4,407 nt of DNA from a virus (taxonomy: Duplodnaviria; Heunggongvirae; Uroviricota; Caudoviricetes). Position numbers and translations under genes: made by a program. Position 1 is the stretch's first letter, and every line of letters starts with the position of its first letter. Positions 3,437 through 4,124 of the stretch are shown one piece after another. Under the pieces are notes generated by a model that saw only the letters and a list, made by a program, of their open reading frames with translations, had not been told where the DNA came from and did not search any database. Where the stretch lies: positions 1 through 4,407 of IMG/VR virus record IMGVR_UViG_2667527595_000022, one strand, 5' to 3'.

Positions 3437-3652
3437 ATGTATCAGATGGAAAAAATATCAACGGGCATAGCCTATGGTACTTCTGCGGGCAGTGCGGGTT
3501 ACTGGTTTCTACAGTGGTTGGATCAGGTTACTCCGTCACAGTGGGCTGCTATCGGGGTTTTGGGGAGCCTGTGTCTGGGGTTCCTGACATACCTGACGAA
3601 TCTGTATTTCAAGATTAAAGAAGACCGGCGCAAAGCTGCGCGGGGAGAGTAA
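3437..3652 (+). CDS. S: Class II holin / pinholin of the phage 21 S21 type, with dual-start motif (71-aa antiholin and 68-aa holin)
   Basis: The 71-aa ORF begins MYQMEK (Met1 and Met4 give the dual start). It has two hydrophobic segments ([18 protein letters not shown] and [18 protein letters not shown]) and a charged C-terminus [13 protein letters not shown]. It closely matches my recollection of S21 and 933W-type S proteins, and lies directly upstream of a SAR endolysin gene. A G-rich RBS precedes it. Confidence 0.85.
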
Positions 3653-3656
3653 GCTG

Positions 3657-4124
3657 ATGAGCAGGAAACTCCACTATGGTTTATCGGTAGCCGTTCTGGC
3701 GCTGATTGCCACAGGTGCTTCTGCGCCTGAAATCCTCGACCAGTTTCTTGACGAAAAAGAAGGTAACCACACCACGGCATACCGTGATGGTGCGGGGATC
3801 TGGACCATCTGCCGTGGTGCCATCATGGTGGATGGCAAACCTGTCGTCCCGGGCATGAAGTTGTCGAAGGAAAAATGCGCTCAGGTTAATGCCATTGAAC
3901 GTGATAAGGCGCTGGCATGGGTGGAGAAAAACATCAAATTGCCACTGACTGAACCGCAGAAAGCGGGCATCGCGTCATTCTGTTTCGCCATCGCCATTGC
4001 TTCGGCGGCAGCGGTGGCCTCATCCAGAAGAGAAGCCGAAGCTATATCCAGCCCGGTCAAATCCAGCGTTACCTGCTGGAAGTTGAGTAGTGCTTCAAGG
4101 CGGCCCTGGGAGACTTCAGGTTGA
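3657..4124 (+). pseudogene. R: SAR endolysin (T4-lysozyme-like, GH24 muramidase), 3'-truncated; lysozyme homology ends at ~3983 and the rest of the ORF is antisense gcvP sequence
   Basis: SD GGGAGAG lies 8 nt upstream, and the start is 4 nt after the holin stop. The N-terminus has a Gly/Ala-rich signal-anchor-release segment (YGLSVAVLALIATGASAP) and the catalytic E-x8-D-x5-T triad (EGNHTTAYRDGAGIWT). Lysozyme-like sequence runs to ...QKAGIASFC (~codon 109, nt ~3983). From there the plus strand is the reverse complement of gcvP, so the 45-aa tail [13 protein letters not shown]... is not native. No Rz/Rz1 follow. Confidence 0.75.

Follow-up and report, generated by a model that had tools for sequence, protein, structure and literature searches.

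The locus analysed here is a standard late-operon lysis cassette of the kind found in 933W and other Stx phages, carried by an stx-negative lambdoid prophage of Escherichia coli. It is an already known system cut by a contig-level breakpoint, and no new toxin module. At that breakpoint, phage sequence breaks off inside the lysozyme gene R and gives way to antisense sequence of the unlinked host gene gcvP. Our leading explanation, held with modest confidence, is that this join is a false join or a chimeric molecule in a draft assembly, and that the isolate itself carries an intact set of S, R and Rz/Rz1 genes, as its sisters do.

Gene content and provenance of the contig

The window, by which we mean the whole stretch of DNA that was analysed, is an entire draft contig (CDRQ01000216.1, 4407 bp) of the fragmented E. 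coli assembly GCA_000941195.1, as established by an exact-protein look-up with its esterase; the exact esterase protein occurs on nine draft contigs, namely the window's own and eight others. The ORF list and Pfam scans place all phage genes of the window on the plus strand in the same orientation and show the five phage ORFs to the left of R to be intact. A tRNA scan found no tRNA genes in the window. The features are as follows.

294..503, plus strand: prophage-borne STnc100 sRNA, full-length (Rfam RF02076, 138.2 bits; gathering score 47)
54-229: second, weaker STnc100 copy (Rfam, 30 bits, under the gathering score)
735..2708, plus strand: intact NanS-p-type sialate O-acetylesterase of the late operon, 657 aa (Pfam DUF1737, SASA and DUF6645)
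2850..3044, plus strand: DUF1378 small membrane-like protein, 64 aa (PF07125, E 7e-36)
3070..3360, plus strand: DUF826 protein, 96 aa from the ATG at 3070 (PF05696, E 8e-25)
3370..3402, plus strand: terminator-like hairpin and T-run between the DUF826 gene and S (12-bp stem followed by TTTTATTT)
3437..3652, plus strand: S21-family class II holin S, 71 aa, intact, a predicted pinholin (PF04971, E 5.3e-35)
3657..3983, plus strand: 5' part of R, codons 1-109 of 177, encoding an R21-like lysozyme (PF00959 partial; identical to intact R)
3982..3983: breakpoint with a GT overlap between R nt 326-327 and antisense gcvP nt 487-486 (three-way comparison)
3984..4124, plus strand: 46 codons without meaning at the end of the chimeric R' ORF, antisense gcvP read to the first stop (ORF list and gcvP identity)
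3982..4407, minus strand: nt 62-487 of gcvP (glycine cleavage P-protein), a fragment that continues past the end of the contig (PF02347, E 1e-65)

The SASA esterase is a conserved gene among Stx phages (PMC8136144). The STnc100 sRNA sits downstream of the Q/pR' region, which itself lies off the contig. Some annotations give the DUF826 gene 134 aa, with a start at 2956. In the original assembly, the gene caller reported the holin and the gcvP fragment and left the chimeric R ORF uncalled.

An intact holin beside a truncated lysozyme

The first-pass annotation had described an intact S21-type holin with two starts, and the intact holin is confirmed. The 71-aa ORF scores 119.7 bits on PF04971 ('Bacteriophage P21 holin S'), for which the cut-off is 26, and covers almost the full length of the profile (positions 1-63 of 64); it also matches PHROG holin families. 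Its product has 100% identity to the protein annotated as holin S in Escherichia phage PhiR12_4, 89% to EssD of the K-12-type cryptic prophage and 82% to S of 933W. Residues 1 and 4 are both Met, the second in-frame Met lying at 3446 and giving a 68-aa product, and with these a dual start is possible. The three-residue extension is Met-Tyr-Gln (Met-Lys-Ser in EssD); it contains no Lys or Arg and therefore does not supply the extra N-terminal positive charge of the dual-start antiholin motif. This sets the window holin apart from S21-71, whose antiholin behaviour has been put down to exactly such a charge (PMC9636201), and because the Met-Tyr-Gln extension is without it, the longer product is only a candidate antiholin. 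In the sister contig L007 the identical holin gene is annotated from Met4. A hydropathy scan found one strong segment at residues ~34-58, together with a Gly/Ala/Ser-rich, weakly hydrophobic segment at residues ~8-26 that stays below threshold; this hydropathy profile is as expected for S21-68, since class II holins have a weak, SAR-like first transmembrane segment that can leave the membrane and a strong second one. The holes of such pinholins are small (heptameric, ~2 nm), enough to depolarise the membrane but not to let cytoplasmic endolysin out. [quoted passage not shown]

R starts four nucleotides after the S stop. Its ORF (3657-4124, plus strand) encodes 155 aa, of which residues 1-109 only (3657-3983) are lysozyme; the C-terminal 68 of the 177 residues of the intact protein are missing, and the remaining 46 residues of the chimeric product come from reading gcvP in antisense, a tail that happens to add a second hydrophobic stretch. 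In the product of the window ORF, R', PF00959 is matched over profile positions 2-75 of 125 (2-84 in the Pfam scan of the whole 155-aa ORF, at residues 33-118), whereas the 177-aa intact relative covers positions 2-125 of 125. The residues E35, D44 and T50, numbered as in R21 and read from the translation, are present in R'; they make up the Glu-8aa-Asp-5aa-Thr triad and fall in columns aligned to the sequence of the R21 structure. The earlier claim that an R21-like endolysin keeps only its N-terminal ~109 residues along with the E-D-T triad is thus borne out.

The alignment with R21 that had been proposed as a check points the same way. The full-length relative aligns with R21 (PDB 3HDE/3HDF) and RrrD (4ZPU) over residues 31-174, with an E value of ~5e-19 for R21, and its score of 71.9 bits against R21 (3HDE) drops to 23.5 bits for the window product. 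The match of the latter ends near residue 115, at about residue 105-112 of the 165 in R21, with everything past the equivalent of R21 residue ~105 lost. Neither PF00959 nor the R21 alignment finds a complete phage-lysozyme catalytic domain in the window product, which, judging from its sequence, is very unlikely to be active as a folded lysozyme.

The N-terminus of R carries Arg3/Lys4, followed in the hydropathy scan by hydrophobic residues ~8-23 (GLSVAVLALIATGASA) and then Pro24. The last residues of the hydrophobic segment ahead of Pro24, Ala-Ser-Ala, could form a signal-peptidase motif. A signal-arrest-release (SAR) domain, by contrast, is a membrane segment that stays uncleaved, weakly hydrophobic and rich in Gly/Ala. 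Lysozymes of this Stx-phage gene family have been termed 'predicted SAR' (PMC8136144), and for R, too, the SAR label is a prediction for an N-terminus that is hydrophobic but ends in an Ala-x-Ala motif. Of the proposal that the SAR anchor is kept, the hydrophobic segment is confirmed, and the Ala-Ser-Ala motif leaves the anchor function as predicted.

Complete cassettes in close relatives

The phage part of the window has near-identical and identical counterparts in which nothing is missing. Positions 1-3983 are 100.000% identical over 3983 nt to three of the eight other draft contigs with the esterase (L005, L007 and L008), all of which encode the full 177-aa lysozyme; the R part of the window equals nt 1-327 of their intact R at 100% identity. 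The same positions are 99.9% identical to the complete prophage of E. coli UPEC-245U/190328, which has replication genes, Q, terminase, portal, capsid and tail genes as well as R and an Rz 'lysis protein' gene. Beyond these relatives, the 5' part of R shows ~93% nucleotide identity to many Stx2a phages. In the sister contigs, an IS3-family element starts ~245 nt after the R stop and those contigs end inside it; in L005, Q ends ~2 kb ahead of nanS-p.

In the complete genomes and in phages PhiR12_3 and PhiR12_4, the intact order runs from a 100% identical holin to the 177-aa lysozyme, two small ORFs and Rz, and the annotation of 933W has the same cassette layout. In intact relatives, ~0.5 kb separate R from a downstream Rz (PF03245, E 7e-50), and in one intact copy (L001, strain G1/2) a +1-frame Rz1 lipoprotein ORF with the lipobox LVVSAC is embedded in Rz. 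The late-operon order is therefore nanS-p, DUF1378, DUF826, S, R, two small ORFs and Rz with embedded Rz1. As the first-pass annotation had stated, the ORF list and comparisons reveal no Rz/Rz1 in the window, where phage sequence stops at 3983; the spanins are missing because the contig leaves the phage before reaching them. As a survey of Stx phages reports a predicted pair of pinholin and SAR endolysin beside Rz/Rz1 in ~99% of them (PMC8136144), this type of cassette is already known.

From what is known of the family, the intact cassette would work in four steps. Q-antiterminated late transcription would read through the hairpins; S would then build up in the inner membrane until its small holes collapse the proton-motive force; this collapse would release and activate the membrane-tethered lysozyme R, leading to degradation of the murein; and Rz/Rz1 would disrupt the outer membrane last.

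An abrupt junction with gcvP

At 3983/3984, exactly after codon 109 of R, phage sequence gives way to antisense gcvP, which runs from nt 487 down to nt 62. Comparison of the window with its R parent and its gcvP parent shows that the two parents share only a GT dinucleotide at the join, and that the junction has no filler, no IS end, no att site or att-like core and no target duplication. The host part (3982-4407) shares 99.8% identity with gcvP from Nissle 1917 and from many other genomes, and the minus strand at 3881-4405 translates to the N-terminal part of GcvP (PF02347, E 1e-65). With 424-426 nt, this part is about as long as one short-read library fragment, and it ends in single-copy sequence; each of the 5426 complete E. 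coli genomes has one copy only of the gcvP segment.

The junction itself appears nowhere else. Megablast searches found it in 0 of the 5426 complete E. coli genomes and in no record of the phage and plasmid collections. A 34-mer across it has no exact match in genome, viral and metagenome contig collections, and neither the 155-aa R' ORF nor the reconstructed 195-aa GcvP' chimera has an exact match among ~15 billion proteins. Four predicted products of the reciprocal inversion junction likewise have no exact match among the ~15 billion proteins, a result that is uninformative because the form of these queries was guessed.

The gcvP part contains a private SNP at window position 4043 (nt 426 G>A, Met142Ile), and a 55-mer around it has 0 matches in the 5426 complete genomes. 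A full-length GcvP that combines the Nissle sequence with Met142Ile is recorded only for another assembly (WP_020245595.1, GCA_000397685.1), with the codon ATC (G>C) and not ATA. Because that substitution arose by G>C, it is an independent change that says nothing about the window's isolate, and the SNP was dropped both as a lineage marker and as evidence of sequencing error.

Of three simple origins considered for the junction, two were rejected and the third is disfavoured. A repeat boundary at R nt 327 that would break the assembly graph is not supported, given that intact copies are identical through R nt 778, with no variant or natural repeat boundary at nt 327; scaffolding that wrongly linked two contigs ending in repeats is thus a poor model. 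An IS-mediated adjacent deletion or inversion fails on the lack of any IS sequence or target duplication at 3983/3984. The third is a simple adjacent deletion running from R through attR into flanking host DNA. The closest complete genome offers no target for it, as its prophage lies beside ynfF within the ynfEFGH operon and the ~80 kb to the right contain no gcvP; in the source strain, such a deletion may have been possible.

Transcription of S and the cryptic-prophage toxin reading

The first-pass annotation had taken the locus for a decayed cryptic prophage that keeps an intact pinholin as a maintained toxin after losing its endolysin and spanins. The contig does hold an intact holin ORF and a truncated lysozyme ORF, and pinholins expressed alone are lethal without lysis (PMC9636201). 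We nevertheless regard this reading as very improbable. Pseudogenes, divergence and IS scars, as marks of decay or of loss shared by descent, were not found in window positions 1-3983; on the contrary, these 3983 nt are those of copies with a complete cassette, and they closely match a prophage that retains its replication, Q, terminase, portal, capsid and tail genes. What had been described as a cassette left incomplete in a cryptic prophage is the outcome of the abrupt gcvP join and not of decay: the loss consists of a single host-gene junction, present in one contig only. The combination of S with R' recurs in no collection searched, and there is therefore no evidence of its maintenance by selection.

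The expression context leads to the same conclusion. A hairpin at 3370-3398, with a 12-bp stem and a T-run after it, is terminator-like. The 76-nt stretch that includes it (3361-3436) is base-for-base the same in the complete phage PhiR12_4, which makes the hairpin a normal part of the late operon and no barrier peculiar to the window locus. The terminator-like structure noted earlier at 3372-3402 is confirmed. A consensus scan of the whole window returned no sigma-70-like promoter on the plus strand; its one match, against 3.9 expected, is on the minus strand. S sits behind the terminator-like hairpin in a Q-dependent late operon, with Q and pR' upstream of the contig. Together, the promoter scan and the Q dependence argue against S acting as a stand-alone toxin in the lysogen. 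On these grounds, and with the junction unique to one contig, the proposal of a cryptic-prophage toxin is not upheld.

False join or real rearrangement

Two explanations of the junction carry most of the weight: an assembly or library chimera, and a private microhomology-mediated rearrangement. We consider the former slightly more likely. The join occurs once only, in a 4407-bp contig from a fragmented draft, and a non-homologous inversion or fragment insertion that strikes a single-copy core gene is an intrinsically rare event. The paper describing a Velvet/SSPACE/GapFiller pipeline warns that greedy tools 'can lead to false joins' and counts 4-10 misassemblies per benchmark genome (PMC5320598). 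We assume from its accession series that GCA_000941195.1 was built by a pipeline of this type.

Several observations weigh against an artefact. As a rule, a de Bruijn assembler or gap closer joins sequences only where reads truly cross the junction, and singleton chimeric fragments are usually dropped by coverage cut-offs. A repeat-induced misjoin would not be expected to give a clean join with a 2-nt overlap. As overlap-merging cannot yield a 2-nt overlap, molecules carrying the junction were probably sequenced; they could stem from a library chimera that survived the coverage filters or from a true, perhaps subclonal, rearrangement. No intact gcvP call with the matching allele was seen for GCA_000941195.1, which fits a gcvP that is either truly broken or spread over more than one contig.

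If the junction is real, a private and recent illegitimate rearrangement with 2 nt of microhomology joined codon 109 of R to nt 487 of gcvP, an explanation that we regard as quite possible though not favoured. Such an event could have taken the form of a large inversion that broke R at one end and gcvP at the other, of the capture of a phage fragment in gcvP, or of a 426-bp piece of gcvP inserted into R in inverted orientation; under this last form, the stop of the contig exactly at gcvP nt 62 would be explained by the boundary of a two-copy repeat. The clean 2-nt overlap is typical of end-joining or template switching, and the requirement of assemblers for junction-spanning reads, along with the lack of a full-length matching GcvP allele call on record for GCA_000941195.1, speaks for a rearrangement. 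The private non-synonymous SNP, 60 nt from the join, is compatible with error-prone repair synthesis or relaxed selection, and the IS3-family element downstream of R in the sisters marks a region prone to rearrangement.

Conversely, nothing comparable exists in the 5426 complete genomes, in which the gcvP segment is always single-copy, and the sister contigs with identical prophage sequence keep an intact R. A reciprocal-junction product was not found in the protein search described above, and the contig ends 424 nt past the join in otherwise unique DNA. Finally, an inversion of at least a megabase within a replichore, or a non-homologous insertion, is rare compared with misjoins (PMC5320598). 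A false join or chimeric molecule thus remains our preferred explanation. Even if the join is real, we infer that it is a private, very recent breakpoint and not an evolved pinholin-only module.

Comparison with known lysis systems

The cassette resembles that of phage 21 (S21-68/S21-71, R21 and Rz/Rz1) in its PF04971 holin of 71 aa with Met1 and Met4, in the order of S followed by R, and in the positions of E35, D44 and T50, which are identical between R21 and the lysozyme of the full-length relative. This lysozyme is only distantly related to R21, with 72 bits over ~140 residues for the full-length relative. Besides the uncharged Met-Tyr-Gln extension of the holin, the differences from phage 21 are the Ala-Ser-Ala end of the N-terminal segment of the lysozyme, a possible signal-peptidase site, and, in the window, an R that ends at residue 109 with no Rz/Rz1 after it.

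The agreement with Stx and 933W-like phages is closer, these having the same layout of SASA esterase (nanS-p), small ORFs, S, R and Rz/Rz1 (PMC8136144). The window differs in having no stx upstream of nanS-p, where the STnc100 sRNA is found instead, and in its cassette being cut at codon 109 of R by the gcvP junction. In PhiR12_3 and PhiR12_4 (PV340552, PV340553), the 5' part of R is 100% identical to that of the window; both phages, like the UPEC-245U prophage, continue through a complete 177-aa R to Rz and have no gcvP next to R.

The cryptic cassettes of K-12 type (essD-rrrD-rzpD of DLP12 and essQ/ydfR/rrrQ of Qin) likewise place an S21-family holin beside a phage lysozyme, and the window holin shares a 13-residue C-terminal tail with the EssD homologue. 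These remnants exemplify the retention of lysis genes in a defective prophage. By contrast with the window, the K-12-type remnant copy examined has a full-length lysozyme gene (534 nt), and it contains IS insertions and pseudogenes, whereas the phage part of the window is free of decay.

Implications

The locus carries little biological weight, being the standard lysis system of Stx-like lambdoid phages with a singleton breakpoint in a small contig. It does offer a lesson in method: when an ORF looks truncated or chimeric, the first thing to check is whether the contig switches to unrelated DNA there, and only then should a functional story be built on it.

Were the junction real, the prophage could still depolarise its host on induction through its intact S, without a functional lysozyme at the locus. 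Under the inversion or capture form, the isolate would also be a gcvP null, and glycine cleavage might have been knocked out too. We entertain only tentatively the further idea that a real microhomology event in one clinical E. coli isolate turned a pristine, inducible prophage into a lysis-defective element able to depolarise only, as a first step of domestication. A real junction would be a minor, if neat, case of a single illegitimate recombination that disables phage lysis and perhaps a metabolic gene of the host.

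An apparent tandem sRNA locus between Q and nanS-p

Between the late antiterminator gene Q, which lies upstream of the window, and the esterase gene nanS-p (735-2708, plus strand), the following features were identified:

54-229, plus strand: STnc100, second and weaker copy, upstream (30 bits, below the gathering score)
294-503, plus strand: STnc100 sRNA, full-length Rfam match (138 bits versus a gathering score of 47)
514-533, minus strand: strong terminator-like hairpin (stem of 8 bp, 7 of them GC pairs, and then T8)

Terminator-like hairpins at 203-222 and 473-492 coincide with the 3' ends of the upstream and downstream STnc100 copies, respectively, and from sequence the two copies look like a tandem prophage sRNA gene pair. 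In Stx phages, the Q-nanS-p interval is the site of stx, whereas the prophage in the window carries the putative STnc100 pair there instead. The minus-strand hairpin comes directly after the STnc100 terminator, so that the two resemble a bidirectional terminator. Upstream of this hairpin, the minus strand has no evident gene.

Farther downstream (region 2850-3360), annotations differ in the start of the DUF826 gene, which is placed either at 2956 (134 aa) or at the 3070 ATG (96 aa). The longer call overlaps the DUF1378 gene by 89 nt, and the DUF826 Pfam match falls entirely inside the 96-aa form.

Sister contigs and gcvP variation

In sister isolates with an identical prophage, an IS3-family element is inserted approximately 245 nt 3' of the stop codon of the lysozyme gene R, within a small hypothetical gene:

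L008 (a sister draft contig), ~5762-6035: IS3-family element (rve_2/rve_3 transposase fragment), also present at the ends of sister contigs L005 and L007

The sister draft contigs terminate within this element, copies of which occupy up to 43 places per genome.

Codon 142 of gcvP (gcvP nt 426; window 4043; 10426 in L014, a sequence with intact gcvP) is ATA in the window contig, ATC in GCA_000397685.1 and ATG in E. coli Nissle 1917. Judging from these codons, GcvP Met142Ile has at least two separate origins, via different nucleotide changes. The ATA allele occurred in 0 of 5426 complete E. coli genomes.

N-termini of the lysis proteins and the chimeric tail

The holin N-terminus (3437-3448) reads MYQMEK, retaining the dual Met, but its three-residue extension is without the Lys found in the EssD/S21-type start MKSMDK. 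An identical holin gene is annotated from Met4 in one public record.

The lysozyme N-terminus (3657-3728) is MSRKLHYGLSVAVLALIATGASA/PE, with a possible Ala-Ser-Ala cleavage motif, and resembles a classical Sec signal peptide as much as a SAR domain. For the Stx-phage lysozyme family, SAR is a prediction only in the literature. In the chimeric ORF, which joins R to antisense gcvP, the antisense-gcvP tail by chance contributes an Ala/Ile-rich hydrophobic stretch (window 3954-4030, residues ~100-124). If the chimeric product is ever made, it would be predicted to contain a second membrane-like segment.
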